From the NCBI RefSeq assembly GCF_964355755.1, contig NC_092673.1:17791648-17855647 (forward strand): 64,000 nt of DNA, given 5' to 3'. Positions within the stretch are counted from its first letter, which is position 1, and every line of letters starts with the position of its first letter. Below, one piece after another: positions 24,956-64,000 of the stretch. Origin of the DNA: Antedon mediterranea. Lineage: Eukaryota > Animalia > Echinodermata. The notes beneath the pieces are model-generated. The model had not been told where the DNA came from. It was given only the letters and a program-made list of their open reading frames with translations, and did not search any database. A program made the translations under genes and the position numbers.

Positions 24956-25400
24956 AACAAGAACAATAGATATGACATAATCAATTAACTGTATGTTTAA
25001 ATACATCATGTCATATTAAAAAAATGACTCGTGCTCAGCAGTCAGAAAACACAACGGCAGGCACACAGACAACAACAGTCTAAAACAAGAACAATAGATA
25101 TGACATAATCAATTAACTGTATGTTTAAATACATCATGTCATATTAAAAAAATGACTCGTGCTCAGCAGTCAGAAAACACAACGGCAGGCACACAGACAA
25201 CAACAGTCTAAAACAAGAACAATAGATGTGACATAATCAATTAACTGTATGTGCAAATACATCATGTCATATTAAAAAAATGACTCGTGCTCAGCAGTCA
25301 GAAAACACAACGGCAGGCACACAGACAACAACAGTCTAAAACAAGAACAATAGATGTGACATAATCAATTAACTGTATGTGCAAATACATCATGTCATAT
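24890..25400. repeat. 128-bp tandem repeat, 4 copies, spanning the gene A stop codon
   Basis: atgactcgtgctcag at 24896, 25024, 25152, 25280. Confidence 0.95.
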
Positions 25401-28009
25401 TACAAATTTTAAATGCAAAGAAAGAACTTGTAAGAGTGCTGAAGATAGATGTGGAATGATTCAGCACAATTGATTGCAAGAACAAAAATAACAAAATGAA
25501 GGGGAAAGGTGTTGTGTCATGAAAGAAAACATTCCAAAATTGTATATATTTATAAGTAGAATAATTAGTAGTATAGCTTTTATAACTTTGTAATATGAAA
25601 CACCATAAAAAGAACAAAAAATACTATACAAAAATTACAAGGTCAATATCATGTGTATGGATGACAGGATTACATCACAAAAGAAGACATGAATACAAAT
25701 GAAACATTAAAATATTATAAACAGGATAATACTGACAGTAGCAAAGTAATTGTGAAGCTTGTCACAATGATGAATGGCTGAGCTCTAGAGGGGTTTAATT
25801 TTGAAAGCAAAACAACCGATTATTAATGGTGTGAATAAAGTAACTCCAATTTCTTGACAAAAGAAACATGACAAATTTTCAAAAACCAGTTAAATGGCAG
25901 CCATAAAATAACGGTTAAAAACACCTAATCGATTTTAGTGTTAGAATGTTCTGGTTATCGCTCTGTACAATTTTTAGCTGCAAAAACAGTTATTTGATTG
26001 ACATCCGTTGACCTGGAGTCAACTACACTTTAGTAACGTTTAAAATGACTGTCTGAGTACATTGCATTTTGGGTACTGCTAATGATCACCCACTGGTTTA
26101 AACGGTTATTTGGGAGTCCAAATTTAGCAGAAATGCAGTTAAATATAAACTTTTTAATATATTTTGAAATAAACGATTTATTTTGCGTTATGCAGAAGAA
26201 AGAGACCATAAGGAAACCAGAGAGTTTTTACTCCTTGCTGGTACATTGATTTCAAGTTCTAAATTGGACAAACAGACATGCTTGCTATTTTGTCTAGGTA
26301 TCATACCTTGTACAGTACATATAAATCAGTACTAAGTATTTAGTAACAATAGAAGCCCATACAATGTGTTCTTCATACATTTTGTCTGTATTTCAACTAT
26401 AACATGTAAAGTAATGTCCGGTATTAAAAGTTTGTCATTTGTTGTGTCGGTTGGTGCCGTTGGAATGTAGACCTAATTTACATTCTATGAGTCACTCCCT
26501 TTATAATGATTGTGTAGCAGAGAGAAAACATTTTATTACTCTTTTTTTTTTTGTATATAATATTAATATGGTTGCTCACGTTTAAAGTAGATTTTTAATT
26601 ATAATACTAAACTGTATAAAAACTCTACCTTGATGTTTGGTACTTAGACTTGCCACAAGTCTGTATGTATTGTCTTTTTTATTTATTTTTTTTATTTCGA
26701 TTTTTGTCTGAAGCTCAAGTAGTATACGTATGAAACGCCATATGTGCCAAAATATATATTTGTTTACTAATTAGTAATATTAAGTCAAAACTCCGTCTGG
26801 AACCCAGACTAGGGTGTACTGTTTGATCTCACTCTGTTAGCTGTATTGACTATGTTATATTTTATCCATAGTTGATTGACTTAATGATAGTTTTCAGTGA
26901 CATTGATTATAACATTCACATTAATAATTTATGATTATTTAGATTGTGGTTACCAAAGTGGTATTAATGACATCATTGATAATTATCGTACCATGCTATG
27001 TAATTTTGATGTGTAAATGTACTGATATCTTATATTACTGTAATTTTCATATCTATGAAACAAACCCAAATAAATACAGATTGTTGAATATACCACGACA
27101 GTAATAAAGATTTCTTAAATAAAAATTGGTGGGAGAACAGAGCAGCCGACTAAGTTTTTATTGTGATCAGAAATGATACCATTATTGAAAAAAATGTTAT
27201 TGAACTGAAATACTATAGTAACAATTTTTCGACAATTTATTGTGGATAATATTAATATTCACAATCTGTAGTTGTTGACAGGTGATAATGATAACTATTA
27301 ATATACCAATCTGTGTGAACTGTCATCTTAAAATGTCTGTTTAATTCATATTTTGCAATTTCAATGTTTTTATTCTTAATGCTGCATTTTGGGTAAAGTT
27401 TGACCTACTGTAATTAATATAATAATTCAATCCACAATAACATATTTGTCTTTCTTTTCTAAATACAGTAAATGAACAGAGTTTGAATAGTAAAAATAAA
27501 GAGGCAAAATACCCTGGAACTGGAAGTACTTTGGAAAGTCTTACAATTTTATTTTACTTGAGAGAACCAGTTAATTATATAGTTTGTTAATTAATTAATG
27601 ATATTGATGTGCAGAATTACAAAAACTAAACACATGGAAATGAGACCAGGTAAACGAAAGCAAATAATTAAATCCTTGCACCCTCTAATCCTTACCATAC
27701 TAGACATAGACACAACTTTTGTTGAATCCCATTGTGCTACTAAACACCACTTCTCTAGCCCTGTTCCATATTTGATCCGATTATTAAACAAACAATGATT
27801 AAATCTAAATTAATGTTTGATGAATTGTTTATACAGTAGTGTTCAGTTTTTGTACAGTACTAAATTATATTTTTTATGAATACATTTTATGATGTCTGTT
27901 TGTTGAAATGATTTGAAATGTTTTTTTCACTTTTAATAAAAATTTTGTAAATTAAAACTCAATTCAGTGTTTATGCTGCTATTTAATGTTTATATATTTT
28001 TTATAAATA

Positions 28010-35574: not shown

Positions 35575-35880
35575 GTGTTAGATTGTGCACATAAGGCATG
35601 TGTATTGTTAGATTGTGCACATAAGGCATGTGTATTGTTAGATTGTACACATAAGGCATGTGCATTGTTAGATTGTGCACATAAGGCATGTGTATTGTTA
35701 GATTGTGCACATAAGGCATGTGTATTGTTAGATTGTGCACATAAGGCATGTGCATTGTTAGATTGTACACATAAGGCATGTGCATTGTTAGATTGTGCAC
35801 ATAAGGCATGTGTATTGTTAGATTGTGCACATAAGGCATGTGCATTGTTAGATTGTACACATAAGGCATGTGCATTGTTA
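35575..35880. repeat. 30-bp minisatellite, about 10 copies
   Basis: gattgtgcacataaggcatgtgtattgtta repeated. Confidence 0.97.
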
Positions 35881-44674: not shown

Positions 44675-47600
44675 TGTAATATAATGTTGGGTTGTTGAGG
44701 TACCAATGAAAGACTCTGACTCGCTTGACTGTCGTAACACATATATTATTTATTCAGTATAATACTTCAGTACAATATACAACTATAAGTATAGATAAGG
44801 AACGCGGAGGATCAATGATGCTGTCGGTGAGGTGTGGTGTGTGTAGGTCTGCTTCTGGAGAAGTGGTTGTAAGGTGTGTCTGGGCCCTTCTGAAACTTGG
44901 GAGTATATTGGCTCAGTTCATTTGCATAATGTCATTACATCATCTGTGAGGGTAACGATTGGTCCTAAGTTGATCCAGGGGTGTTTAAGTGGGAGTGATT
45001 AACGGTGTCATAAGGTATTTCTGTGATGGATGACACTGTCAAATCTGTACTTAAATAGTGTCGATCACTCCTAGTTTTAACGATGGGAAAGTCACAAAAT
45101 TAAGCTAAGTGTTTTCTTTAGGGACTCTATTATAAACTAAATGGTCATTAAAACATCTGGACAAACTCTCCTTTGGACTTTCTGGGTCAAGTTTGTGAAC
45201 CTATCTGAATTCCGATACAAAGGTCAATTTCTTAAATATAAAAGTATATCCTTATATTACATCCCTCTGTTTCCCTTTTTTTTTTTCTAATCTATTTAAC
45301 ATATAAAAATGGTTATAATAGTAAGTGGCATGCAAAATTAAAGTTATATAAAAGAAAAAAACATTATTATACATATATGCAAAATTGAGTTAGCCAAAAC
45401 CATTGACTCTGAAGTGTAACCTTATCACTTTCACTCTCTCTCTTCTCTCTCTTAAAAAAATGTAATTAAAAATGAATTTGGTATAAAATTCGCGTAAATC
45501 AAACATAAATCAGTTGAAAATAAAAATACAAAACTTATAAATAGTATGTTACATTGAACATACATCAAATTGTGCGACAACTCATCGCGTTCTAATGGTC
45601 TTCAAATATAAATCAATCAAATCAAAACGTAAAATTCAAGAAACTGTGGCTGATTAGCCTAAAATCAAATATCAAACTTAATCACTTAAAACTTTAAAAG
45701 AAACAAATGTGTGTGTCCCGTTGACACAAACTTATCCACAATATATCATTATCGTCACAACTTTATCGATTTAAGCATTTATATTTACAGGTAATTACGA
45801 TTTCAATCAATCGACAAATTCGACTTTTGTACTCAATGTCAAAAAAATTACGATTAAAAGTACTAAGAAAATCTCCTGTTATTGTATATCAATTAATTAA
45901 TGCTTGAGATTAACGACTCAAAGGTTAAACAAAATATTTGTTACAAAATGATTGTCGTTCTTTTTAATATCTCAATATATCGATCATTCAAAATTCAAAA
46001 TTAATCATTATCAAAAAACTCGTTACAAAATCAATACTTAATCATAAATTCAATTCTCTTTTAACTGAAATCACATCATTACTAAACAAATCTCATCAAA
46101 TACGTAGACTATGCTATCATTTAGCAAATGTCGTAATTTAAAAATAATCTTGCAAAAAAAATTTTAAATCAGTAATTTGTTGCATTATACAAACGTTTTA
46201 TGAATCGTTTTGGCGATCCACTTATCGGTATCTGTTTATCTTTAATGATCTCTTTAATCAATTTATCTGTATCGTTATATCTGTCAATATTCCACCAAAA
46301 TTTGCGATCATTAGATTCGTGTTTTGTTTCATCAGTGTTACGTTTGGCTGAAGTCGGTTTAGAATATGAAACTAAAACTTGGAAATGTCCTGCTTTAAAT
46401 CTACCTCGGTTTAATGTCATACTTGAATCATTAGGTGCTGTCATAATTAAATTAGTTTGTTCCTTAATTTGTTCTTCTTTCATTTGGAATGGGGCTGCTA
46501 ATCCCATGTTGTTCTCTACACAGTCAATGTAAGGTTGCAAGTTAAGGGGTTCAAATTTAGTTGGATGTGTAAGGGTATCTGATTGCAATTGGGTTGGTGT
46601 CCTATCATGTTCGTTGACAAATTAAACATTGTTTTCGTTATTTACTACGTTAACGGTGTTCTGAATTTTCTCATTATTATCGGCGGGTTTATTCAACAAT
46701 TATTTTAACAATTAAAAAAACAATTTTAGTGTGTATATATGTAAACTCTCACTATTTCAATCAAGGTTACAAATCAAAATCAAAATGGTTTTGACTTACC
46801 CCAAATGCTTCGGATCCAATTAAAAATGAATTAAAGGAATGCAAAAGTGTTCAAAAATGTCTAAATGTTCAAACAACGAATTAAAAAAATGTTAAAAGTG
46901 CTCATCAATGTTCAAATTTTCAAACAACGAATTAAAAAAAAGTGCGAAAGGTGTTCATCAATGTTCAAAAAAGTAAATGTTAAAAAAAACGATTGAAAAA
47001 AACGGCGTGAAGTTGAAAGTCTCTAAACGAAACAGTTCTTGTCCGCTTGCTTCTGTTTTGATTCTTCTTGGGTCTTCCTCGATTATCTTCTTTGTCTTTA
47101 TCCAATGGTTATAATTTCATAAAATTTCTGCTTGTCTCGATTTCATTCAAATATAATTTCAGCTTGTCTTATGTGTCTTCCTCGATTATCTTTTTTGTCT
47201 TCATCCAATGGTAATAATTTGATCAAATTTCTGCTTGTCTCGATCTCATTCAAATATAATTTCAGCTTGTCTTTTGATTGAGTCAAAGTAAATTTCTCTC
47301 CTTTCAAACAAATATGGTTATTTTTGTCTTCGTCTTCGTCTTCGTGTCTTGTTAAGTGTTTATTTCTTGTTTTCTCACTCCGTTCCTTATGAAATTTGGG
47401 TCTTCCACCATGTAATATAGTGCTGCGTTGTTGAGGTACTAATGAAGGACTCTGACTCGCTTGACTGTCGTAACACATATATTATTTATTCAGTATAATA
47501 CTTCAGTACAATATACAACTATAAGTATAGATAAGGAACGCGGAGGATCAATGATGCTGTCGGTGAGGTGTGGTGTGTGTAGGTCTGCTTCTGGAGAAGT

Positions 47601-47997
47601 GGTTGTAAGGTGTGTCTGGGCCCTTCTGAAACTTGGGAGTATATTGGCTCAGTTCATTTGCATAATGTCATTACATCATCTGTGAGGGTAACGATTGGTC
47701 CTAAGTTGATCCAGGGGTGTTTAAGTGGGAGTGATTAACGGTGTCATAAGGTATTTCTGTGATGGATGACACTGTCAAATCTGTACTTAAATAGTGTCGA
47801 TCACTCCTAGTTTTAACGATGGGAAAGTCACAAAATTAAGCTAAGTGTTTTCTTTAGGGACTCTATTATAAACTAAATGGTCATTAAAACATCTGGACAA
47901 ACTCTCCTTTGGACTTTCTGGGTCAAGTTTGTGAACCTATCTGAATTCCGATACAAAGGTCAATTTCTTAAATATAAAAGTATATCCTTATATTACA
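44675..47997 (-). mobile_element. Non-autonomous LTR retrotransposon (Gypsy-like 4-bp TSD)
   Basis: 587-bp LTRs 44675-45261 and 47411-47997 with tgtaatata...tatattaca ends, TSD ctac, minus-strand PBS-like TGGTGG at 47410, polypurine tract at 45262-45290; no pol motifs seen. Confidence 0.93.
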
Positions 47998-48802
47998 CTA
48001 CTCAACGTGCAAGGTGTCCTTTAAATTGAGTAAATGGCTCTGCTCAGAGATATAAAGAGTTACAACATTGAATGATTAGAAGCCATTTTTGTGTCTAAGA
48101 ACTTGCAAGCTGCATGCATGCTCGTTTATTTTGTACAGTGTTTTCCTGTAGTTCATCCATTATTTTTAGATCTATGAAACAATGCTTAGATGCCGTATTT
48201 TAGTAATTTATTTTATTAATGGTCTTGATTCGGTAGCCTACAGTATATATATTTTTTTTTATAATAAAAAAATAAACGCTACATGCAAGTTCAATCAAAG
48301 CATGATCCAATATAACACGTCATATAACACACAATTCACCTCTCTTTATATATGGCTCTGCGTTTTTGACACAAGCTGCGCCGACAACTTTATTAAATTT
48401 TAGAGACTCATTTATCATTTCATTTGTAATAATTTGCCTTTATTATTTTAATATTGTTCATACCCTTTTCAGTATATTAACAAATATATCCACAACACTT
48501 ATTTTATTTAGTCAGCAAAGCATGCATTATATATTTAAAAATATTACATAGTTATACTGTATATATATTCTGTTGATACAAAATAAAAGGTACGTCTAGT
48601 ACCGCGAATAATTAAAAATCAATCAATCTTATAATGTACTACTAGCACAAGCGCAAATACTTCTGTACACTTTTCACTATTTGCATACTTTACATGATAA
48701 ATATAGTTCCTATCAAATCAGAGGATGATATTTTATTAACAATTTTTTTCACAGAATAAATACGATTGATAATAAGGAAGTTAGTGGTGAAGTTTAACAT
48801 CT

Positions 48803-48827
48803 ATGAACAACATGGCATCTACTAAAG
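48803..48827 (+). CDS. Gene B putative start exon (MNNMASTK)
   Basis: Acceptor ttcacag ending at 48754, ATG, donor AG|gtatta in phase 1. Confidence 0.55.
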
Positions 48828-51319
48828 GTATTATTATCATTATTATTACATTTCTTTACCCAGGGTAGCCCAAACAGTTTAAACTTGTTTTCATTGGTGC
48901 CCAGTATGCAACATTATACATTTTTACAAACTCAGCAGATACTTAGTTATTAAATACAGCAAACAATACACTTACAGAAGTCTCAAATCAACTGGCAAAT
49001 TGTTCCATATATTTGTTCCACTAACACAAAAACTTGTGAGGTAACTCTCCTTTTTAGTAAAAGGGACCTTACGTTTCATAACAGTGGACTGTCTTATTTT
49101 ACTAGTTGTTTAAAGTGCCGTGAATAGGTTTGTCATGCCTATGGGTGTCAAATTGTTGAGACATTTGAAAACGAGAGTGGCTTTTTGTAATACCACTCTT
49201 TTGGGAAAAAGGAAGCCATTTCACTTTTAAAAACATTTCTGATGATGGGATAAGAAAATCGCAGTTTGGAATTAGTCTAGCTGCTCTTTTCATACACTTG
49301 TTAAAGACACCTTCCCTACGTTTTTTAGATCTATTTTAAGATCACAAACTATATTTAATGTAAAAATAATACTATATATGGTCCTATTGCGATAACTTTT
49401 TCGTCTTTAAATGGTTAAAAATGTGAAAAATAAGTCGATTCTAATAATTATAGCGGCCCGCTATAAATCCCAAAATGCATTGCGCACGGATTGATATTTC
49501 TGTTTTTCTTCTGTAATTCACCCACTTTTCGATTGATCGTGAGCCAAAATAAATGGAAGACTCCTAACTTTTCAGCGAAAATACCGGGTTTTCCCCAATT
49601 TGTATTAACGGAGTCTGGCAAAAATAGAAAGACAATTAATGCAGCAACTATACAACATCAGGCTAGGTATGTAGCTAGCGTACGATGTTCGTACGTTACC
49701 GGTGTTTACCAGCTAGGCCTACAAAACTAAGCCTAGGCCTAAAGACCGTCCACGAGAGGTCAGTCGCCGCGAGCTACTTGAGTAGTGCATTGTTTCTCAT
49801 CATAAATCATAATTTACCATAAAACGTACATTTAAGACAAGGAATGACCTGGTTTAATGTTTTTAAAGTAATATATATGTATTATTTTTACAAAACGTCA
49901 CAAATTGTAGGGAAGGTGTCTTTAAGCAAAGTATTATATGTGATATATATCGCCCTCCCCATACTGTACAGCAGTAGTCCAGCGATGGTCTAACTGAGCT
50001 TACATAGAGTATGCGTGGAGGGGGGGGGGGGGGGTGCGGGCACAATACCGTACTCTGCTTAACATACCAAGTTTATATGTAACTGTTTTCATCAATTATT
50101 ACCCCTAGGCATTTACAACGTATTTCTCTAACAAGTACAGTATCAATATTAATATTACAATCTACATTGGAAATTTTTTTTTTGGATCTGATGAGAGCAT
50201 AGATTTAGTCTTTTTAGCATTTATTTTGACATACAGTATAAAATTACCAAACAAATAACAAAAAATAGAATCTCTTGGCAACTGAATTCAAAGTAAAGTT
50301 GTGCATTTGGTCAATTCTTTAGTTACTACCAGATAAACTTTACTTATATGCAGATGAAACCACAATATACATCTTGCATCTCATTTTTATATTATAGAAA
50401 TCTCGGAGGCTGATTTCAGGCAACTGGTGGCTGAAATAGAAAATTGGTATGATCGGAATGGATATCTCACAAGACTGAAACTTTTATACAAAGACCATCT
50501 GCAGTTCGGTAGAGCTAAAACTGTTTGGGATCTACTGAATGATTTATCAGCCTCTGGAAGTTTGAGTTCATCAAACCTTACTATTCTATATGACACAATA
50601 ACGGTAACCAAGCAATTTGGCTTCCAGTCAAATGTTGAGAATCAACCTCCAGAAGATATTAAGGATCATGTAGTATCAATGTTGACACCTTTCAGACAGA
50701 AAGTTTATCAGTTAGGACTACAACTGAAAGAGAGTGATGTATACAAACTAGATGCTTTATATAACACTCCACTGAAGAAATATCAAGACAGCTGGAGTAT
50801 GATAATGGACTTTGAACATAGAGGGATCATTGATGAGGATTCCACAAAGATGGTTCAATTTCTTAGATTTTCAGAAAAAATTGGAATGACAAAGGCTAGA
50901 AGGATTTTTGTTGGTTGGTTTATTTGTTTTTTATTTTGTTTCTTTCAAATCATTGTTCACTGCTTAATAATATTTGCTACATACAGCACAATCAAGTGAG
51001 CGTACTGAACCAATCAAATATTTTAGGCAGATTCAAATTTGTTCATTGGTTTGTTTGGGTTTTTTTGCCAATTTATTGTAACTTAAAAGCACTCCATTGT
51101 CATTCAATCAAATAATTTATTAGTAATTAATTAATACATAATGTATAGGTATTCTATTGACAATTTATTATTACTTTAACATTTATAATGCTTGCTGAAA
51201 TCAATCTGAAGTCATTGTATTGCTTTTAATTCTAATATAGTTTTGATATTGAAACAAGTAATTTCTGTCCAAAATACTGAGACGATGAATGGAGGTTATA
51301 GCTGTAGATGTACTGTATG

Positions 51320-51351
<32 letters not shown>

Positions 51352-54300
51352 GAACTTAATTTACTCAAAGCAAAATTAAACTCATAAAGTCAGTTAATTA
51401 TAGAATAGAAATATATCATTGGGATTAGAATTCCTTTTACCCTTAGCATTATTTTTTAAATATTTTTTATTTCAACAATATTTTACAAGGGTGGTCCATC
51501 CAGCCGAAGCTGATCACTAAGGACCCTCACATAATTGCGTTGCAGAATTTTCTGGGATTTTTTTTTTTTATATAACCTATTCGAAGTGGTGTACTTTTTA
51601 TTAGCAACATTATTAAGTGACGAACTACAAACGAGTCTGTAGTGTTTTTTGGCAAGTTTATAACATAAAAATATTTGGCGGACCTAGGCACAGTCTTTCC
51701 ATATACCAAACCAAAAACGTTGTCTAGCAATTGTGCTGTTGCTATACCACCAGTTTACTGCCTTTCTTGACCTAGTACTATTTTTAGTGGTACCGGTATC
51801 GCAAGAATCATGAATAGCAGCAGAAATTTGTTTTCATAAGTTGTCAATAGAGGACTTTTTTTAATACTGAAAACCCGTAAGGGTCTCATAAGGAATTTGG
51901 CCTGTCCCCTTGTTAAAGCAACGGTTGCAAATAATAGCAGCCTGTTTCACTGCATATGTCCAAAAAGTTTGGAGGAGTCCAGAATCAAGTAATATGCATC
52001 TTCCTATCTCAAAAAAGGTTCTTCCAGCAGTGCCGTTCTGGTGCAAAGAATACCTGCCTTGATGTTGCCATCTTGGTCCCAAAGTGTAACAGTTTTATCC
52101 CCATGCATTAGCACAACACTCCGTTGATGCATGAAACATCAGCAAGTTACATGTAGTTGTTTTTATTCGCTCTTCACTCTTTGTCATCATGGGTGGCACT
52201 ATGATAATAATTACACCATTTGAACAGTTGTGTGTTTTGCTCAGAAATGCATTCACTTTATGTCCACTGCCTCCGCAGTTTGGTTTTGCTCTTGTCAGCA
52301 TCATAATGTTATCAGACAATACATTTTCCTTACTAAATCTTTTTGTTGCGGTTCTTCAATTCTTCTTCGATTTAGTGTGAATGTCATTACTCCTGTACTA
52401 TTCGGTGAGGTTGAATATTTTAAAGCATGAACTTATTCCATACATATGAGCCTATTCACAGACTTAAACCTATTCATAAGTATGAATTCATTCACACAAT
52501 CATGATGAACTTATTTATAAATATAATCTTTTTTTAAATATAAAAACCACTTTATAAGAACACGGATTACATTTTCGATTCATCAAAGGAACATGTATAC
52601 CAGTAAATCTTATTACAAAACATCTTGGATAAATCTCGATGCTCAAAAATAAGTTTCTAAATTTGAAAATAGTGTATGTTACAGTTGCAACAACTAAGAG
52701 AAAACTAAACATATCTATTTTCTTTGGATTCCTATACAATACAAGTACAGTGAGCTTAATGATATTTCTTTATAAATATTTTTACATTTAGTCTAACCGT
52801 TTTAAACATCTTTACAATGTAAAGATATTTTCATACTCATCTTCAATATTACATCGTTCAAAATGATAATTTTCCATTTATACATTTTTTCGTATACAAG
52901 AAATTAAATAATGCAGGAGTTAGCTAATTTCCAAATTTCATTCCAACTCAATTCATACATATCTTTTCCATTTTTCTTAATTTTATGATATACATAATTG
53001 TTTTCATGATCAGTTCTCAATTAATATGTTAGACATCAATACAAATAAATTTTGTTATATATCAGAATATCATAGACATTTGAGAGGCGTTCATTTTCAC
53101 AAGTGGTTGAAAATTTTAGATAGGCCGTGAAAACGAACCCTTCTCCCCTCTAATTTCTACGACATTCTAGCAAAGAATGACAATTTTAGATAGGCCCTAA
53201 AAAACGAACCCCCTCTAATTACTATGATATTCTGATATACTGTATAACTATTTTTTTTTATTAATGTCTAACATAGAGTTGAGAACTGATCGATTATGAA
53301 AAATATTTATGAATTTGAATTGAATTGAAATATATATATACTGGGTAACCTCTTCAGTCAAAGACTGGTCTCCCAGAGGGCCCAGTTGGTGATCAGTGGC
53401 TGTGATGTACTAATACACCGGGGTAACCCCCTACTCGTCTCGAAAGATGTACTAAGTTCTTTAAAGTGCACACGAGCTAGATGTGTACACTGGACCTACG
53501 GTTTATAGTCCTTATCCGAGAAGACTCGTTCTACCACCAGAACCATGGAGTGAGTGAGCCTCGAACCCCTGCCGATGTTATGGCTACGTAATTACGGTTC
53601 CACTGTCTTAACCGCTCGGCCACTCACTCACTCGAATATCACTATAGAACTTTAAAAAAACAGAGGGGACATTCTAGCAAAGGGGGGTTGAAAATTGTTG
53701 ATAGGCCGCATAAAAATGACTGTTAAAGAGAAGATATTAGTAAGCTGTCTCCTAAGGCGTTGTAGTGCTGTTGCATATCGTTCCGCTCTTAAACTATATT
53801 CTGTAATTGATTCATCATACACTTAAGTATTTCCCATGCCTCTTTACCTTTATCTGGAGTGTCACGCATGACAAGCTCCAGGCTCTGATCATCAATGTGG
53901 AGTACAAATTTCTGAGTTCCCTTTCGAATTGGGCGCATCGTCTGTTGGTGTTGCTTTGCCAGTTATTGTGTCTGTTAATTTCATTCCGGCCAGATGGGCT
54001 AGTAGAAATGAGTAGACCATAATTCATAATGTTCTGCTTCTCCGTCAAAATAAAGTTGCTTAGAGCTTGTGATGCTGGGCCCATAACCTGTTGTATCCAG
54101 CTCAGCCATTTTAGGTTAGGTCCTAAGGACACCAACACTCAATCGAAATTAATTGCAAAAATAGTATTTCTATGCTATGTACGCTATGTGCACAAAAGTG
54201 TGTGCGCAGTGCAAACAATTTTGTTATGCTCAAAATGCGAAATTGATTTTGAGTATTTTAAACACACCATTTTTATTTTATAAAAAGGGCATTCCACAGT

Positions 54301-57300
54301 ATTGTGACATAAGTTGACAATTTTAAAATTGTGTATTGTACTGTACATAAATTAGAACATATTCAGATTTGATTTATTAAGTTATTCATCATCATACATA
54401 GTACAATGATAATTGTTTTCTTGGCAGAAAAACACAAGCAAAACAATACACACATAATATTTACATTCATGATCAACATGGAAATTAGCAACTGATAAAG
54501 CAATATAAAATACAAATGACTTCATCTTACAAAATTTGCATCTTAATTTATACTAAGAAACATTCACTGGTCTAATGTTAGACACCAGTGTACTGATATA
54601 CTGTAGGCCTATGAAATATTTTTGTCAAATACTAGTTTCTCATCATTACCATTCCAAATTATTCGCATTATTGCCTTTTAATTTAGAGTTAAATTTTGTT
54701 GTATCCTAATTCGAGTAACATTTTATGTAAGTTTTTTATTTTTTATTATTACAAAATATGTTTTTGTATTATACTCTATACTGTATATACAGTAAGAATG
54801 AAGAAGGTAGATTGATTAATTAATTTGTCAGATGTATTTTATATTCTACATAATTTACTACGATAAGCCTATTATTACTTTTGTAATTATTCATTTAGTA
54901 TTGATATTTTGTCTATATACAGAATCATCTGAAGATTTTCGGACAAAACCAACATCTTGGGAAATGTCGGACTTACAAACCAAGTTCAACCACCTCAAAT
55001 GTGATCTTGGCAAACACTATGATGGGGAAAGATACCTTTGGCTAAAATGTTGCTTATTTGATGTTATTCCTAGAGCAGACCTCACACGTACTGATTTCAT
55101 AGCAACTGATCTGTTCAATGCGCTCCATGACAACAGTAAAATCAAACCGGATGATGTCACCATCCTTTTTGAGGTTGCCGAATTATCAGGTTTGCAGCTT
55201 GCTGTAGATCTTGTAAAGCAGTATATGGAAGATAACAACGTCAAAGGTACTGGTGACAAGTTATCCTCTTACCGGAAACGGTTATTTAGGGCTCTGAAAG
55301 AAGTTGGACCAGACAAGTTACAAGATGTCGTTGCTTATTATGGCATTCGAAGATTTGGTTTTCAAAACATGTGGGACGTAGTGTTTTACTTGGAAAGCGT
55401 TTTACAGCTTGAGGATGAACCATCAAAATTAAATGTGTTTGCTGCACATATTGGAATGCGAGCAAGAAATATTTTATGTAAGTATTTAATTTTCTATTAT
55501 AATATTTTATTTCTGTTCCATGTGGAAGAAAGAAAGTTATGGATAGGTATCGTTAGACTGTTATGCTTTATCATCATCATTACTTCATCATAATTATATC
55601 TCAGTCGTTGTCATCACTATTCATCATTATCAATCAAAATAAAAACTATACTAATGCTATTATTATTGTTTTATTACATTATATAGGCCTTCTTAAAAAA
55701 ACAGTACCCGAGTCAGTGTCAGGGAGGATATTTGGAGGTAGTGATTATTCTATTAAAATTCAGACAATGTTGGTACAAGTATCGTATTGGTATGACGAGC
55801 ATGATTCACTTGATATGCTGAAGGTGTTGTGCAAAGATCTGATAACGCCTAACAATGCTCTACAAAATGCTGACACCACCATGGAGTTGTTTGATTTATT
55901 GCAACAGGCTGGGTGTCTTTCCACTACCAACTTTAAAGTTCTTATCGATATCATCAATATCACCGGTACCAAAGGTGCTCTTGAGGCTAACAAATATCTG
56001 AAGAACATGTTTGATGAATCTGATCATCATGTTACATCTTTTACAACGTATCGACAGAAACTGATAGATTTCGGCAAAACACTTTCCCAAGACAATTTAA
56101 GAATGCTGATCAGTCTAAACGATGTTTCTAGGAGACAATGTGTCAACCAGTGGACTGTGATACTAGATCTTGAACAAAGGGGCATCCTGAGGGAAGATAC
56201 ATTGCAATCATTTATCAAACATTTAAAGGAAAATAAGATGACTGTTGCTGCTGAAACGTTAGAAGGTTAAGTTAATTCTCAGTATTATGTACTAAATAAC
56301 TGATAAGTTTGTCTGTGTACTGCAAGTATAGATCATGAAATGGTTTAATTTCTACTTTTTAAAATTAACTCTATATTATAATTAAAATAAGAGGAGAAAA
56401 ACAGCTTTTTTTCAGAACTCAATATTTATTTTTTACTTAAACTATGACACACACCTACAGTATTCTATTTTTTGGTCTGAAATGCTTTGTGTTCTTCTCC
56501 TTATTTCTCCAGTTTTTGTGTTGTGTTAATATTTTTATAATATGTTACTATTACTGTATTTATTACAATAGCATTTTAATTAATACTTTTTTTCTTGTTT
56601 ATTGGAGTCTATAGTTAACATTTTAAATTCTTTTTTTTAATCTCATAATGTAATTTTATTTATTATATAATAATGTAGTATTTATATAGTTTGTAGATTT
56701 ATTTTGTCAGATGTATTTTATATTCTACATAATTTACTACGATAAGCCTATTATTACTTTTGTAATTATTCATTTAGTATTGATATTTTGTCTATATACA
56801 GAATCATCTGAAGATTTTCGGACAAAACCAACATCTTGGGAAATGTCGGACTTACAAACCAAGTTCAACCACCTCAAATGTGATCTTGGCAAACACTATG
56901 ATGGGGAAAGATACCTTTGGCTAAAATGTTGCTTATTTGATGTTATTCCTAGAGCAGACCTCACACGTACTGATTTCATAGCAACTGATCTGTTCAATGC
57001 GCTCCATGACAACAGTAAAATCAAACCGGATGATGTCACCATCCTTTTTGAGGTTGCCGAATTATCAGGTTTGCAGCTTGCTGTAGATCTTGTAAAGCAG
57101 TATATGGAAGATAACAACGTCAAAGGTACTGGTGACAAGTTATCCTCTTACCGGAAACGGTTATTTAGGGCTCTGAAAGAAGTTGGACCAGACAAGTTAC
57201 AAGATGTCGTTGCTTATTATGGCATTCGAAGATTTGGTTTTCAAAACATGTGGGACGTAGTGTTTTACTTGGAAAGCGTTTTACAGCTTGAGGATGAACC

Positions 57301-58831
57301 ATCAAAATTAAATGTGTTTGCTGCACATATTGGAATGCGAGCAAGAAATATTTTATGTAAGTATTTAATTTTCTATTATAATATTTTATTTCTGTTCCAT
57401 GTGGAAGAAAGAAAGTTATGGATAGGTATCGTTAGACTGTTATGCTTTATCATCATCATTACTTCATCATAATTATATCTCAGTCGTTGTCATCACTATT
57501 CATCATTATCAATCAAAATAAAAACTATACTAATGCTATTATTATTGTTTTATTACATTATATAGGCCTTCTTAAAAAAACAGTACCCGAGTCAGTGTCA
57601 GGGAGGATATTTGGAGGTAGTGATTATTCTATTAAAATTCAGACAATGTTGGTACAAGTATCGTATTGGTATGACGAGCATGATTCACTTGATATGCTGA
57701 AGGTGTTGTGCAAAGATCTGATAACGCCTAACAATGCTCTACAAAATGCTGACACCACCATGGAGTTGTTTGATTTATTGCAACAGGCTGGGTGTCTTTC
57801 CACTACCAACTTTAAAGTTCTTATCGATATCATCAATATCACCGGTACCAAAGGTGCTCTTGAGGCTAACAAATATCTGAAGAACATGTTTGATGAATCT
57901 GATCATCATGTTACATCTTTTACAACGTATCGACAGAAACTGATAGATTTCGGCAAAACACTTTCCCAAGACAATTTAAGAATGCTGATCAGTCTAAACG
58001 ATGTTTCTAGGAGACAATGTGACAACCAGTGGACTGTGATACTAGATCTTGAACAAAGGGGCATCCTGAGGGAAGATACATTGCAATCATTTATCAAACA
58101 TTTAAAGGAAAATAAGATGACTGTTGCTGCTGAAACGTTAGAAGGTTAAGTTAATTCTCAGTATTATGTACTAAATAACTGATAAGTTTGTCTGTGTACT
58201 GCAAGTATAGATCATGAAATGGTTTAATTTCTACTTTTTAAAATTAACTCTATATTATAATTAAAATAAGAGGAGAAAAACAGCTTTTTTTCAGAACTCA
58301 ATATTTATTTTTTACTTAAACTATGACACACACCTACAGTATTCTATTTTTTGGTCTGAAATGCTTTGTGTTCTTCTCCTTATTTCTCCAGTTTTTGTGT
58401 TGTGTTAATATTTTTATAATATGTTACTATTACTGTATTTATTACAATAGCATTTTAATTAATACTTTTTTTCTTGTTGATTGGAGTCTATAGTTAACAT
58501 TTTAAATTCTTTTTTTTAATCTCATAATGTAATTTTATTTATTATATAATAATGTAGTATTTATATAGTTTGTAGATTTATTTCGCATGCTATTGTTCAT
58601 TTTTGCTTGATTGTTGAACTTAATTTACTCAAAGCTATTTTAAAATCTTATTATATTTTTAGATAATTTTCCAACATTTCAATATCCCAATATTGCTGCT
58701 CGTGATTATCAAGATGCATACAATGAAGCCTTGAAAGGAGGGTCTGTCAAAGTGAATCTTGGAATGCTTAAAGTAATTGGACAGGAAGGAGTGGGTAAAA
58801 CATGCCTCATTAATGCATGTCTTGGAAAAGA
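48803..58831 (+). CDS. Roco gene B (3'-truncated by window): about 10 DED-like domains followed by a Roc P-loop exon
   Basis: In-frame exon chain 48803-48827, 50398-50913, 54923-55477, 55687-56265, 56802-57356, 57566-58144, 58663-58831, all GT-AG and all joined in phase 1. Confidence 0.82.
48835..50130 (-). mobile_element. L2/CR1-clade LINE 3' fragment
   Basis: LYVSSVRPSLDYCCTVWG and KRAARLI...PSSEMF...WLP join after removing the nested element; (AAT)n tail. Confidence 0.75.
49305..49921. mobile_element. Kolobok-like non-autonomous element
   Basis: TTAA|agacaccttccctac ... gtagggaaggtgtct|TTAA. Confidence 0.8.
50398..50913 (+). CDS. Gene B tandem DED-like exon 1
   Basis: FRQLVAEI...LKLLYKD...WDLLNDL...GSLSSSNLTIL and FRQKVYQLGLQL...IMDFEHRGII; phase 1-1. 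Confidence 0.85.
51550..54095 (-). mobile_element. Decayed Ty1/Copia LTR retrotransposon with deletions and insertions
   Basis: Copia-type PBS GGTTATGGGCCCAG at 54088-54075; gag-like FYFDGEAEHYELW and DDQSLELVMRD...GKEAWEIL; knuckle relic NCGGSGH; integrase-like RCILLDSGL..TFWTYAV..AA..CNR...PYE. Confidence 0.85.
53330..53633 (-). mobile_element. tRNA-derived SINE
   Basis: Minus-strand A box TGGCCGAGCGG, B box GTTCGAG, central core, LINE-like 3' hairpin tail. Confidence 0.8.
54923..55477 (+). CDS. Gene B tandem DED-like exon 2
   Basis: LKCCLFDVIP...DLFNAL...IKPDDVTILFEV and SSYRKRLFRAL...WDVVFYLE; tacag acceptor, gtaagt donor. Confidence 0.88.
55687..56265 (+). CDS. Gene B tandem DED-like exon 3
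   Basis: LKVLCKDLI...MELFDLLQQAGCLSTTNFKVL and TYRQKLIDFGKTLS...ILDLEQRGIL; phase 1-1. Confidence 0.88.
56802..57356 (+). CDS. Gene B tandem DED-like exon 4 (duplicate of exon 2)
   Basis: Identical translation to 54923-55477. Confidence 0.85.
57566..58144 (+). CDS. Gene B tandem DED-like exon 5 (duplicate of exon 3, one V>D change)
   Basis: QCVNQW vs QCDNQW. Confidence 0.85.
58663..58831 (+). CDS. Gene B Roc P-loop exon (LKVIGQEGVGKTCLINAC)
   Basis: tttttag acceptor, gtaagt donor; paralog of 10396-10564 with the same length and phases. Confidence 0.92.
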
Positions 58832-59600
58832 GTAAGTAGTAGGACAGTGAAATTGACATTACAAACTAATTGTGAGCAAACTAAGAATTACAAACCAGCC
58901 AACTTTTATTGATTTGTTTTTGATAAACTACTACTTTCTAAATATTGCAGTATAATAGATCTAACAATAGTTGAATAAAAACTTTTAGAAATATATAAAT
59001 CAGTTACTACCTAATCATAAAACCATCAAATTTTCTATAGATTATAGAATTTAATTTTAATCTTGTATTCTTTCTAGGAAAAAAAATCATACGAATTGTT
59101 GAGTAACTTGACTTCCTAAATGTATAATTTGCTTCCAATATTCTTAAAGTCATGTAAGGCACAATTGGCTAGTTTTATGTACATTCTTTAATTTAACTGT
59201 ACAAAAAGGTATTTTACCAAAACAATTGAAGGATGCAAATGTTGTACCTATTTTCAAAAGAAATGGAAAACCCAAAGACGAAATGAAAAGCTATCGTCCA
59301 GTGTCTTTAACTCCCATAATTTGTAAGATTATTGAGAAATTGCTTTGCTATCATTTAAGGGAATATCTAGAATATAATAATATCCTTTCAGAAAATCAGT
59401 TTGGGTTTAGACAAATGTATAGTACTGAACTTTTACTTTCAAAGGTTTTTCATTCATGGGCACAGAGCTTAGAACTTAAAGGCTGTAAAAATATTGATAT
59501 TATTTTTCTTGATTTTTCGTCTGCATTTGATAAGGTGTCTCATAAAAGATTAATTAAGAAACTTAATAACTGTGGCATTGGTGGAAACACTAATGCATGG

Positions 59601-62600
59601 CAGGGCCGTAGCCAGGATCTGTCAAGGGAGGTTCGGACAATAAGTATTTTATTCCACCCAATCATTCACACATGAATTAAAAAATTCATCGACAAACGAA
59701 ATATAGCCTATATTCATTCCTTTTAAATATTAGGCATATTGCCAAGGCTAATAATCGATTTGTCCATAATTATTGCGTTTTGCCGGGGGTTTTCCATAAT
59801 CTAAGGCCAATTTTTAGGCCAAATCATAATTGTGCGTAATACGTCATAACACATGTGGTTTTTTTCTTGAGGAAACCGGGGTGGCGACCTCGTGGGTTGA
59901 TGCATGGAGAAATCAGTTTTCTGAAACCATGATTTCTCCATGGTTGATGTCAGTAATTACCACGTTGTTTGATTTTACGACGCGAGATCGTGTTTTCCCC
60001 CGGAAGGCCTACAGTACAGTGTTAACTGTTTGGCTTAGCATCAACCTTATTATTCGATGTTTTCCTTTACTAAACACTGGGAAATATCACTGTGTTTTAT
60101 TTGGTAACTGTCCGTTCAATACTTAAAAATATATTTAAGCTTCATATATATTTTATTTATATTAAAATATCTGGTAGTGACTGCCGCTATTTTGCCTGTT
60201 GTTGTTACTGATCGTTCAGGCGTGCAATCGGCCAGTCTAGTCAAAGATAGTGTAGTAGGAAGATGTTACACTTCGCTCAAAAATTAGAGAACCGCTCGAG
60301 ATAGGGCGCCTCTCACGACGAGTAGGGATAGACGAATCTGAAACATGAGGAGCGCAATGGCAAAGCCCAATGAAAATGGTGTTTTCGGCAATAAATTGAA
60401 AAAATAAGCCACAAAAAACAAACAAAAACTTCTTTTTTGTCTTTATTATACAAAGTTAAAAATTAATATGATGTTTTCATACTGTTTTTGGATCTTTTTA
60501 ATTGTTAATACATTTATTTGGAGTGAGTTTTGTCATGACATGACTGTAAACACTGAGCTAGGATCAGGAGGAGGCTTACGCGCGCCTGTAGACGCATTCA
60601 TGAATGGATGGTGGTCATCTCGTACCCAAACCAACCCGTACCCAAACCAACCCGTACCCATAAAAACTCTTACCTATCTTGGTAAACCCCAGTTAAGTCT
60701 GAAGTCATAATGCTAATTTTACAGTATACAGTATTGTTGTTGACAAACAATATATGATTTATGAATAAATTATAGCAATTCTTCTGCAATTTCTATAAAA
60801 CTCTAGGGGTAGAATCTTCGTTTCTATAGAAATTATCTGTTTCTATAGATTAACATAGAATTCTAAAACTTCTATAGATAGAATATTTTGTGTAAGGGTA
60901 GTATAATGAAAGGGGGTAAAGTAGGCCTCCCCGCGGATATTTTTTCCTTGATATAACCTTACCAATAATGAACTCATCATTGGCTTATAATTAATATTAT
61001 CAATAATGTTAGGCATTACATAATCAGGGCATATACAATTACGATGAATGCACGAACGTTCGGAGTGTTACAAGCATAATATAATAATTAGTTACAGTAT
61101 TATTAAATTATTAAAATTAATAGATAATTAACAATAATTGTTTTTTTTTTCAGTAAAAAAACATACTCGTAGTCCTAAATTCCTATAATGTTCAAGCCTA
61201 CTGGTACCGTATTCAGTTTATGCAGATCGACTATTTGTATAATATTATTGATTATAATAAATATTGATTGATTGATTGATTATTGATTACATGCCATACT
61301 ACCTATTCTCTTTTATTACCCTTAGAAATAAACCATACGTAATGGATTATTATATAGGCATACACAGTGTAGGCCTATTTACCACTATAGGCTCCTAATA
61401 TATTTATTCACTCTGATGAAGAAGTGTTTCTAAAGCTAGGTATTACATTTTCTATCTATGTCCAATGATAAACAATTAAATGTAAATAATTTTAAAAAGT
61501 TCAATTGATTTGCAAATAAAAAAATTAAAATAAAAGAAATAAAATACGAGTAGATAAATTCCAGGTACCTAAACAATTCCAGGTAATTGAAACACAAATT
61601 TGTATTCCAAAACATATAAATATGATTCATTTGCACTTTCTATAAAGATAACATTACATTTTATATGTTAATTCTTATTAAATCTTAATTTTACAGTCAT
61701 ATTATTCTTCTGTTATATAGCCTATTTCCTATACAATAACTTTCCGTATCCCTACTCGACGTGCGAGGCGCCCTTTAAATTTTAGCTCCATGTTGTCTCG
61801 CTTTTATTTGCATTGAACGAATAGGAAGTGTAACATCTTCCTACTACACTATATCTTTGGTCTAGTGTAGCAGCACCTAGCGTTGAAATAACTCATTGTT
61901 TACTTGACAATGACATGCTGATAATGACTTTCGTTGAATAAACAACTATACGTTGAAAGCCGTTCAACACAACGCAAACACAACGCAACGACAACGTGTT
62001 GAATGCGTTGTGATTTTTGCAATTAATTCTGTCCTGTACTGTAGTTCTGTATTTCCGATGCGTGTAGTAGTACCCTATTTATCTTCATTTCCGTACGTTC
62101 GTAAATATTAGGCCGAATTTCCGTAGTAATTTATAGACGTTCCGAAATTTGAACCGTGTTATGCGGGTAGTAGAGCAAAGTTTTCTTCTTTCTGCAAATG
62201 TCCTATCATTATTTTCTTTGTTTTATTTGGAGTGTGGTTTAAAACAACACTTTTGTAAAGTTTATAGTGGATAAATAGAAATGAATTTTTGGAAATTGTG
62301 GTTTTAACATCTGACTTTATTTAGCATTTTTAAATGAATTAAAATTCCAAATTATACAATTTAACCTTTTGCTCAATATATTTATAGCAACAGCTTCATA
62401 TTTTTTGTATAACTTTTTAAAATTATTAATTGATAATTAATTTACATTAATTGAGTACAGTTATTAGAATGTATTACCGTACCAAAAGTACTATCATTGG
62501 GGACTTACCCGTGACGTTCGCATTGAACGAAAAAAAAATTTATCATGAATTTTACGTGCGAGAGTACCATTTGCGGCCATATAGGGGTGTCATTTAACAA

Positions 62601-63343
62601 TTTGCTTGCTCAAATACTCAGTGTCTACAGCCCTGGAGTCTTTGGGCAACCCTCTTAAAATAGTCCTGCGACCGCCCCTGATAGCTCTATCTATATTTAT
62701 TTACAGCAATTTGTTGAGGAAACTAAATATATCAATGTAAATAGGTGGTATTGCTACAGTTGAGTAGGCCTACGTATCGGCTGGTGGTCTAGAACAAAAT
62801 AATCGAATGCTATAATGTAAACTACAGTACATGATACCATAGACATTATAGTGTAATATATTAATATTCACTATAATCCTCTATGATGATGATACACTAT
62901 ACTTCATAGCCACACATACATATTGTAGGTAACCACAGCGTTCCATTTTTTTATGTACGTCGGAAGGCTATATACTTTATGCATGCTGACTGCCAGTGAT
63001 CGAAACAATAGGTACGCGGTTGTCTAGCTGTGTCCTTTGTACGATTCGTTGTGCCCAAGCTCGCGCCAATATCATGTTACATCCTGGGACCAAAAATTTG
63101 TATTATTTTTCAGGCGAAAATCGGCAACCAATTCATTTGTATTCACGAACGAGTTTACAAATTTTTAAATTTACAAATAACCTTTTGTATTGTGGGGCAC
63201 GTATTTGGAGGATTTTCAGAGATGAGAGTGGTGAGGTATTGGGGATGTTGTGGATGGGGTTTCGCAGTGGGTTAGGGGGGGGGGGGGTTCGCTGTAAAGG
63301 GGGTTCGCCCGAACCATAAAAACCCCCCCTGGCTACAGGCCTG
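59601..63343. mobile_element. DNA transposon with 5-bp TSD inserted in the LINE
   Basis: TIR cagggccgtagccagg / cctggctacaggcctg, TSD catgg; removal restores NAW-ITDFLSNRRQRV. Confidence 0.9.
60242..61859. mobile_element. P-element-like non-autonomous element nested in 59601-63343
   Basis: TIR caaagatagtgtagtaggaagatgttacacttc, 7-bp TSD gtctagt. Confidence 0.78.
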
Positions 63344-64000
63344 CATGGATTACAGATTTTCTTTCAAATCGACGCCAAAGGGTTATTTACGGAGGAGAAG
63401 GTCAGAGTGGGTAAATGTTACTTCAGGGGTACCACAAGGGTCAGTTTTGGGCCCTTTTTTATTTTTGATTTACGTAAGTGATATTGTAAATAATATTTCT
63501 TCTTCACTTTTTCAATTTGCTGTTGATCACACATTATCACGTCCTATTTATAACAATAATGATTGTAAATTGCTTCAAAAGGATTTAAATTTAATTGCTA
63601 AATGGGCAAATGTAAACAAACTTCCCTTAAATCCTGTCAAGTGCACCGTAATGCGCATGTTACAAGATGTAAAGAGATCGTTAACTGGGATTATACCATA
63701 GAATCAGACAATATTCCTAAAGTTACAGAATTCAAATTTCTAGGTGTGTATGTAAATAGTTCGTTGTCTTATCATACACAAGTTATATGTTGTAAAGCAA
63801 GCAGATTGCTTGGTTTCATTTCAAAATGTAGTAAAAATATGTCCTGGTTAGCTATGTTGAACTTATACAAAGCTCTATTACTTCCAGTGGTTACCTACTG
63901 TTGTTCAATGTGGGCACCATTTGAGAAATCATATATTAATAGAATAGAAAGTATACAAAGGAAAGCAACAAGGATAATAATGTTTAGAAAGGAAGGTTCC

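Follow-up and report, generated by a model that had tools for sequence, protein, structure and literature searches.

A tandem-DED exon array that may form the 5' half of a ROCO gene in the feather star Antedon mediterranea

The stretch of DNA analysed here, called the window below, comprises 64,000 nucleotides of the forward strand of the Antedon mediterranea genome (NC_092673.1, positions 17,791,648 to 17,855,647) and contains, on its + strand, five exons that each encode one tandem pair of DED-like units (a tandem DED, or tDED, cassette). Death effector domains (DEDs) are modules through which the caspases of cell death are recruited. These are exon 1 (50398..50913, 516 nt, cassette type 1), exon 2 (54923..55477, 555 nt, type 2, the most divergent), exon 3 (55687..56265, 579 nt, type 3), exon 2' (56802..57356, 555 nt), whose protein is identical to that of exon 2 (100% in tblastn), and exon 3' (57566..58144, 579 nt), which differs from exon 3 by one residue (99.5% in tblastn). 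A preliminary description of the locus had reported these five exons of 516–579 nt, with one tandem pair in each, and three divergent exon types in the order 1-2-3-2-3, all of which is confirmed, the types being 20–28% identical to one another. Every exon is open, is bounded by AG and GT, has a length that is a multiple of three and is in phase 1-1, and the chance of an open stretch of 171 codons at the local base composition is about 2e-6. The symmetry of the exons means that any subset of them gives an in-frame product.

At its 5' side the array is preceded by a start exon (48755..48827, +; acceptor at 48754) with an ATG at 48812, from which five codons lead to a phase-1 donor, and a second in-frame ATG at 48803; there is a stop in frame upstream, and the exon matches the N-terminus ahead of the type-1 cassette in a relative, P0015. 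At its 3' side, 518 nt past exon 3', there begins a first Roc exon, of an LRRK2-type GTPase, carrying the P-loop (58663..58831, +), the phase-1 acceptor of which is in frame with the array. An in silico splice model from the start exon to the Roc exon, tDEDx5-Roc, gives 989 residues, open throughout, with spacers of 17–21 residues between the five full cassettes. The array probably stands at the front of a Roc GTPase gene, which the preliminary description had missed. Rfam gave no matches across the window.

The Roc exon is 87.5% identical over 48 residues to its closest relative, P0014, an Antedon mediterranea model of the form tDED-Roc-COR-tDED-TM in which a tDED stands directly before Roc, and 81% identical to the Roc exon of a ROCO gene upstream of the array. 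The 55-residue Roc piece alone reaches only E 0.089 against Pfam Roc; the Roc of P0014 scores above the Pfam cut-off, and it is by the match to P0014 that the G1 P-loop of the ROCO GTPases is recognised. No ATG-bearing exon belonging to the Roc exon alone was seen. The next Roc-COR exon was not found in positions 58832-64000, the final 5.2 kb of the stretch analysed, while a control search recovers it at 10694; the remaining Roc-COR part either lies beyond the window or is missing. Other assignments of the DED exons were considered and rejected. They do not close the ROCO gene upstream, which stops at 24955 in a two-helix membrane exon, the array having a start exon of its own; nor do they belong to a caspase-8 or cFLIP ortholog, there being no caspase domain and the next exon after the array being the Roc P-loop; nor to an NLR, as there is no NACHT and tblastn of P0013 and P0015 against the window matches the DED exons only.

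The DED-like nature of the domains, as originally proposed, is supported by Pfam, by profile matches in the PDB and by the fold match of exon 3. The Pfam check bears out exon 3, which lies above the DED cut-off of 35.9 bits (37.8 bits, E 2.3e-9, two stretches), but leaves exon 1 just below it (31.6 bits, E 2e-7, two stretches) and exon 2 at E 0.054 only; the membership of exon 2 follows from homology to P0016 and P0021, being 45–46% identical to cassettes of P0021, which is itself above the Pfam cut-off. Exon 3 alone found no PDB sequence with phmmer, and a profile of the three exons has caspase-8 tDED as its best PDB matches (E 2e-7). AlphaFold2, suggested earlier as a check on the array, gives for exon 3 a model of 11 helices (pLDDT 77.7, pTM 0.77) with the tDEDs of caspase-8, cFLIP and vFLIP as top Foldseek matches (TM 0.6–0.68, probability 1.00, E 2e-3 or weaker), so that the two-bundle fold of the caspase-8 tDED is seen in the predicted model of exon 3 only. 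The exon 2 model is poor in its first domain (pLDDT 63.9 overall, below 50 there) and has a caspase-8/cFLIP chain as its best Foldseek row at E 1.7 and probability 0.35; in the ESM Atlas exon 2 falls in DED clusters at 0.91, but with a weak recognition of 2043, below the 2300 mark.

The E/D-RxDL charge triad, described as a DED feature (PMC4558505), is absent. As the preliminary description had noted, there is no clear RxDL motif: none stands at the helix-6 position in any of 20 aligned cassettes, the only R-x-D-L matches, in exon 2 and its nearest relative, falling elsewhere in the domain. Two residues of caspase-8, F122 and Y8, are described as driving filament elongation (PMC7864959). At these positions types 1, 2 and 3 have A, A and S for F122 (F in 2 of 20 cassettes) and A, C and V for Y8 (Y in 0 of 20), with the caveat that the cassettes align to caspase-8 at about 18–20% identity, which makes the register uncertain; the DED2 F122/L123 motif reads A-L, A-Y and S-L, which is not that of a filament-forming tDED. 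That these residues are not kept weakens the earlier suggestion that ten DEDs in cis would line up in advance and nucleate a filament of the caspase-8 type; as for the companion suggestion, a bait for pathogen DED inhibitors, nothing in the analysis points to such an inhibitor. Each cassette does resemble the caspase-8 tDED, the spacers would be short enough to hold neighbours close, and arrays of ten DEDs have at least two origins in crinoids; even so, with neighbouring cassettes only 20–28% alike, either reading is very improbable, a co-evolved interface being conceivable given so distant an alignment.

Exons 2 and 3 are repeated, with their introns, as one 1879-bp tandem duplication (copy 1, 54820..56704; copy 2, 56699..58583; both +), the copies being 99.84% identical with three differences in 1885 bases, introns included, at 54823, 56143 and 56600. 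The repeat is therefore a recent duplication, and the ten DED-like domains of the preliminary description, which do correspond to five tandem-DED exons, amount to six distinct ones. The near-identity, introns included, also raises the question of a false duplication in the assembly, with six DEDs in the genome at this locus. The base of copy 1 at 56143 is found in 0 of 4 sequencing runs, and the contig that crosses the junction carries 28 letters past 56704, below a bar of 31. Against this, the contigs of the sample that covers the locus best contain entry, tail-to-head and exit paths: a contig of run X4 passes from the tail of the unit into its head (56153-56732), run X1 enters the unit by a path of its own and branches precisely at 56704, and run X3 shows the exit path. 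Contig depth in X1, which is not copy number, is 22–33 inside the unit and 10–14 beside it. These supporting runs come from one sample, possibly the source of the assembly, and an artefact is very improbable.

All 34 of the named relatives of the cassettes are crinoid. The 154 relatives compared are predicted gene models named 'uncharacterized'; 110 have a single tDED, a ROCO part is present in 21 and a NACHT in 29, one or more tDEDs stand before Roc in 4, and the caspase motif QACxG occurs in none of the 154. Multiple cassettes are seen in P0019 (Anneissia japonica XP_033103043.1), with five tDEDs and NACHT-LRR, hence ten DEDs, in P0021 (Antedon mediterranea XP_071952312.1), with four tDEDs and Roc, hence eight DEDs, and in two DED-only models, P0020 (four tDEDs) and P0022 (three). 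As judged from these sequences, multi-DED arrays recur in feather stars and were built repeatedly by exon shuffling.

In a tree, each of the three window cassettes groups with different relatives and not with the others. Exon 1 is 61–69% identical to cassettes of crinoid NLR and ROCO models, while types 2 and 3 are placed after COR in their nearest relatives, at 75–83% identity (exon 2 is 83% identical to the post-COR cassettes of P0005 and P0017). Moreover, the intron between exons 2 and 3 contains a remnant, 35 nt long, of the final COR exon of the ankyrin-ROCO subfamily (55511..55545, with its copy at 57390-57424, +), which agrees with P0005 594-602 at 8 of 9 residues (E 0.025) and at which contigs of all four runs extend into COR-type sequence on one or both sides. 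The three cassette types thus come, on sequence grounds, from three divergent clades, and two of them trace to the 3' part of genes in a different ROCO subfamily. It would appear that a gene of start exon, type-1 cassette and Roc took in the 2-3 block from an ankyrin-ROCO tail, and that the inserted block doubled afterwards.

Such an origin, with its deletion relic and almost unmutated duplication, also suits a reading in which the 2-3 block is a mostly skipped passenger, the working product being a two-DED protein, start-1-Roc-COR, and the array a structural variant that arose recently in a cluster of genes with rapid turnover. The splice from exon 1 to Roc is in frame, and a single tDED is the usual state among the relatives. 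This is nonetheless unlikely, because both exons of the block are open from end to end and keep their AG and GT borders at 17–25% divergence from their nearest known relatives, and because contigs from paralogs join the type-2 exon donor to the type-3 exon start in two runs with exon-biased cover. By the same joints, the mutually exclusive use of exons, raised in the preliminary description as an objection to the array, is not indicated. Joints between exons 1 and 2, 3 and 2', and 3' and Roc were not among the contig matches listed. A contig of run X9 departs from exon 3 precisely where the donor lies, but the codons that follow in it correspond to the C-terminal end of the paralog P0043, so that it is uninformative on the array locus.

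The exon-3 donor is of importance because an in-frame TAA (56268-56270, +) lies two bases past it and is read only if the donor is unused; an equivalent TAA follows exon 3' (58147-58149, +). The donor has 5 of 9 matches to the U1 consensus, which is no weaker than the start-exon and exon-1 donors, those of the upstream ROCO gene having 6–7 of 9 (seven well-placed donors, one mis-positioned row having been dropped). Among relatives at least 50% identical to exon 3, 10 of 11 end within 15 residues past it. This stop, together with the weak donor and so many terminal relatives, makes a serious rival of a gene that ends at the 2-3 block, start-1-2-3-stop, giving a 556-residue protein with six DEDs and nothing else, which would likely act as a dominant negative in the manner of cFLIP-short or as a scaffold, with the second 2-3 copy and Roc behind the stop or confined to minor isoforms. 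DED-only multi-cassette models are known (P0020, P0022), cFLIP-short is described as blocking filament elongation (PMC7864959), and there is an ATTAAA at 56381, although the intron is very AT-rich and a lone ATTAAA is weak for that reason. On the other side, the Roc exon is open and, at 87.5%, conserved, and needs a phase-1 donor upstream; also, the nearest exon-3 relative with a continuation, P0005 (78%), is among the closest and runs on into ZU5. The six-DED product is accordingly possible, if the less probable outcome. As to the original claim of about ten DEDs in cis, the open frame and the precedent of crinoid gene models speak for it, and the exon-3-donor stop may cut the product at six.

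The reading that we prefer, with a probability of about one half, is that a crinoid ROCO gene has its 5' half in this stretch and places up to ten DEDs ahead of Roc-COR as an avidity-tuned docking array, the encoded product being likely an immune signalling switch. Nucleotide-dependent association of Roc-COR would cluster the DED cassettes, and the clustered cassettes would form a multivalent docking array for FADD/caspase-8-like or other crinoid tDED proteins. By analogy with what is thought of the DED of invertebrate DED-NACHT receptors, docking would serve immune or death signalling, with cassette copy number tuning avidity and not pre-building a canonical caspase-8 filament. A wider scheme can be put forward more tentatively, and is doubtful as a whole: splicing and the exon-3-donor stop would decide whether the gene yields a platform of 2–10 DEDs gated by the GTPase or an inhibitor made of DEDs alone; the mixture of cassette types would set out in advance a hetero-DED strand whose interface is non-FL, so that a single molecule would be the counterpart of the DISC; and a symmetric tDED exon would act as a lineage-wide plug-in, in more than 200 divergent proteins, on NLR, ROCO and other scaffolds, one to five deep.

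Vertebrate DED proteins are described as having one or two DEDs, with high valency reached only by polymerising (PMC4558505, PMC11874512). Natural single chains with six to ten DEDs that evolved on more than one occasion within one class of animals, joined to two different NTPase switches, would permit a direct test of whether high valency within a molecule can stand in for the nucleation of filaments. The cassette family, with 238 clusters at 50% identity, would point to a large undescribed crinoid immune family, and the locus shows shuffling in progress, with its three donor clades, deletion relic and almost unmutated duplication. No paper on crinoid DED arrays was found, and the locus extends the known shuffling of invertebrate death folds with a new variant.

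As in caspase-8, cFLIP and viral FLIP, the tDEDs of which are the best profile and fold matches, there are two DEDs per unit. The array differs from these in that five units follow one another, each in an exon of its own, and in being without the helix-6 RxDL and equivalents of F122 and Y8; further, in contrast to caspase-8, caspase-10 and cFLIP-L, the array gene has no C-terminal caspase or pseudo-caspase domain. Closer to hand, crinoid tDED-ROCO and tDED-NLR models share the cassette family, with arrays before Roc (P0021) or NACHT-LRR (P0019), and P0014 has its Roc subfamily in common with the array gene (87.5%). The P0021 and P0019 arrays consist mostly of copies of one cassette, at 96–100% identity in P0021 and 59–71% for four of five in P0019, whereas the window array joins three clades at 20–28%. 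For the DED-NACHT NLRs of amphioxus, sea urchin and Nematostella, the DED has been proposed to link directly to DED caspases, and there too a DED connector was shuffled onto an NTPase switch (PMC2575513); in the array gene Roc-COR takes the place of that switch and a tandem-DED array that of the connector, neither Roc nor DED arrays being mentioned for those receptors in the relevant part of that paper. The TIR-ROCO of Aplysia (PMC9334734) and the LRR-ROCO of brown algae, in which one repeat is described per symmetric exon (PMC11378527), are likewise kinase-less ROCO proteins with signalling add-ons, and recall the locus in symmetric exons, duplication and possible alternative splicing. What sets the array apart from them is the unit that is shuffled, which is a 170-residue effector-recruiting tDED and not a sensor LRR or a TIR.

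Six distinct DEDs, together with a fresh copy of four of them, head a probable ROCO gene (coding for a Roc GTPase and COR protein) in a feather-star cluster of such genes. The five exons concerned, all on the forward strand at 50398-50913 (type 1), 54923-55477 (type 2), 55687-56265 (type 3), 56802-57356 (2′, a copy of exon 2) and 57566-58144 (3′, a copy of exon 3), are real tandem-DED (tDED) exons. Each has AG/GT borders and an open frame, with a length divisible by three and phase 1 at both ends; the chance of an open run of 171 codons at the local composition is ~ 2e-6. The DED identity claimed for them is borne out by Pfam in exon 3, which clears the curated cut-off (E 2.3e-9), and in exon 1, where two stretches match (E 2e-7), whereas the Pfam signal of exon 2 is faint (E 0.054). 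In a PDB profile search with the three exon types, nine of the 13 sequences listed are caspase-8 tandem DEDs, the best match (E 2.2e-7) being to a caspase-8 tDED with an alignment that spans both domains. The AlphaFold2 model of exon 3 contains 11 helices (pLDDT 77.7, pTM 0.77; the remaining four models scored only 48-61), and all 29 Foldseek rows shown for it are tandem DEDs of caspase-8, cFLIP or viral FLIP, at TM <= 0.68 and with no row below E 0.001. The exon 2 model is poor and its fold search gave weak matches; exon 2 is counted as a tDED because of its homology with exon 3 (E 0.003) and with Pfam-positive relatives. The RxDL motif, already described as missing, is absent from helix 6 in 20 of the 20 cassettes (single exons coding a tDED) aligned.

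Ahead of the array lies a start exon (48755-48827, forward strand) with an ATG at 48812, an upstream in-frame stop and a phase-1 donor; the few residues that it encodes also stand ahead of the type-1 cassette in relative P0015. Downstream, a Roc P-loop exon (58663-58831, forward strand) shares 87.5% identity across 48 residues with P0014, a model from Antedon mediterranea in which tDED-Roc-COR-tDED is followed by a hydrophobic tail. Joined in silico, the start exon, five cassettes and Roc exon remain open over 989 residues, neighbouring cassettes being spaced by 17-21 residues. A query that does pick up the corresponding exon of the upstream ROCO gene finds no next Roc exon in the remaining 5.2 kb of the window; by eye, LINE reverse transcriptase-like fragments lie in this intron at 59148-59675 and 63276-64000 (forward strand). 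Since the first 25 kb of the window contain two further Roc-COR units of the same subfamily, the locus is a ROCO cluster.

These two units are consecutive within the upstream locus (1747-24955, forward strand). The reading frame is kept when the final COR exon of unit 1 (ending at 8228) is joined to the opening Roc exon of unit 2 (starting at 10396), and a single chain may therefore carry both units, possibly as an intramolecular version of the ROCO dimer; it is also possible that the locus is two genes, since read-through at 8228 yields a stop. Within the Roc insert of unit 2 is an Asp/Asn-rich low-complexity stretch (11643-11891, forward strand), comparable with the acidic insert of P0014. 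Behind the COR of unit 2 (20890-24955, forward strand) are several very small candidate exons and then a final exon (24728-24955, forward strand) that encodes two hydrophobic helices resembling the P0014 tail, such that the upstream ROCO is predicted to be membrane-anchored; the end of this exon falls inside a 128-bp tandem repeat (24889-25406).

The array had been taken to hold about ten DEDs. Five tDED exons are indeed present, but exons 2-3 and 2′-3′ form a single 1879-bp tandem duplication, the copies of which show 3 differences in 1885 bases, introns counted; therefore only six DEDs are distinct, the other four being the duplicate. Local duplication is frequent throughout the window, with an 81-bp tandem array at 1-1578, an array of 30-bp units at 35576-35880 and a 587-bp direct repeat (44675-45261 and 47411-47997, 99%). 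A false duplication of the assembly was tested against public contigs, and two points are in its favour: none of four runs compared shows the base that copy 1 has at 56143, and the junction-crossing contig of run X4 extends just 28 letters beyond 56704. Contigs do, however, contain each of the paths expected of two copies: entry into the unit in X1, where a contig ends exactly at the branch point, 56704; unit tail into unit head in X4 (56153-56732); and exit in X3 (58554-58784), these three runs being from one sample, the one that covers the locus best and perhaps the source of the assembly itself. Contig depth in X1, although not equivalent to copy number, is 22-33 within the unit vs 10-14 in five flanking contigs. 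The duplication is probably real and very recent.

Were exon 3 left unspliced, a stop two bases beyond its donor would give a product of 556 residues with six DEDs, a candidate form that would resemble cFLIP-short, and 10 of the 11 relatives at least 50% identical to exon 3 do end there, within 15 residues. P0005, an ankyrin-ROCO model 78% identical to exon 3, nevertheless continues past the cassette, and the exon 3 donor matches the U1 consensus at 5 of 9 positions, the same score as the donors of the start exon and exon 1. The ten-DED chain is also favoured by the Roc exon itself, whose acceptor requires a phase-1 donor ahead of it. Contigs of runs X8 and X9, which cover mostly exonic sequence, leave the type-2 exon at its donor into the type-3 exon start, in paralogs; joints 1-2, 3-2′ and 3′-Roc are not among the matches listed for the contigs examined. 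The odds that a ten-DED ROCO isoform is a main product are about even.

Word-index searches gave 14 longer relatives, all from A. mediterranea. In the full profile search, 238 clusters (50% identity) reached E <= 0.001, suggesting from sequence that the tDED family is very large. The best 150 of the 238 were listed, 140 of them new; all 20 new clusters looked up are from A. mediterranea or Anneissia japonica, names that extend neither to the other 120 nor to the 88 unlisted. With a counting profile built from the window cassettes and 17 relatives, 154 proteins have two DEDs (110), three (4), four (36), six (1), eight (2) or ten (1); NACHT occurs in 29, a ROCO part in 21 and the caspase motif QACxG in none. 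Crinoid models among P0019-P0158 also place the cassette on NHL/RING, TPR/NB-ARC and ZU5 scaffolds. The ten-DED protein is an NLR (NACHT plus LRR; XP_033103043.1, P0019), and ten DEDs per chain are therefore rare, not unique, among crinoid gene models; one eight-DED protein (XP_071952312.1, P0021) has Roc behind its array. A tree of 36 rows places the P0021 cassettes in one clade, the P0022 cassettes in another and four of the five P0019 cassettes in a third; the window's three types scatter among different relatives. The arrays therefore arose independently, and that of the window is a mosaic.

Type 2 is 83% and type 3 75-78% identical to the post-COR cassettes of ankyrin-ROCO models, two of which (P0005 and P0017) have a type-2 cassette followed by the beginning of a type-3 exon; 35 bases of the exon 2-3 intron match the closing part of the final COR exon in this subfamily. 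The simplest history would be that an ancestral gene of start exon, type-1 cassette and Roc acquired exons 2 and 3 as a block from the terminal part of an ankyrin-ROCO gene, the block doubling later.

As to function, caspase-8 filaments are described as growing when a DED1 accepts, in its Y8 pocket, the F122/L123 motif of the preceding molecule's DED2 (PMC7864959). By profile alignment, types 1, 2 and 3 have A, A and S at the F122 position and A, C and V at Y8, and the 20 cassettes have F at the former in two cases and Y at the latter in none; the alignment is distant, which limits the residue register, and the filament seed proposed in the preliminary description is weakened, no more than that. 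Direct recruitment of DED caspases has been proposed for the DED-NACHT receptors of amphioxus, sea urchin and Nematostella (PMC2575513). COR mediates dimerisation (PMC11378527), and Aplysia has ROCO domains linked to TIR adaptors (PMC9334734). By analogy with these, a Roc-COR switch would cluster the array, which, multivalent and of mixed specificity, would recruit DED partners. Such a gated docking array is better supported than a filament seed, although we infer every functional step. Among the titles and abstract openings searched, no crinoid tDED expansion, DED-ROCO protein or array of more than two DEDs was found, nor any description of the crinoid family; the architecture tables of PMC8195603 could include such proteins. 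The array itself appears as a variation on known invertebrate death-fold shuffling: where the DED-NACHT receptors, as described, carry a DED on an NTPase (PMC2575513), the window gene would combine a Roc switch with a tDED array.
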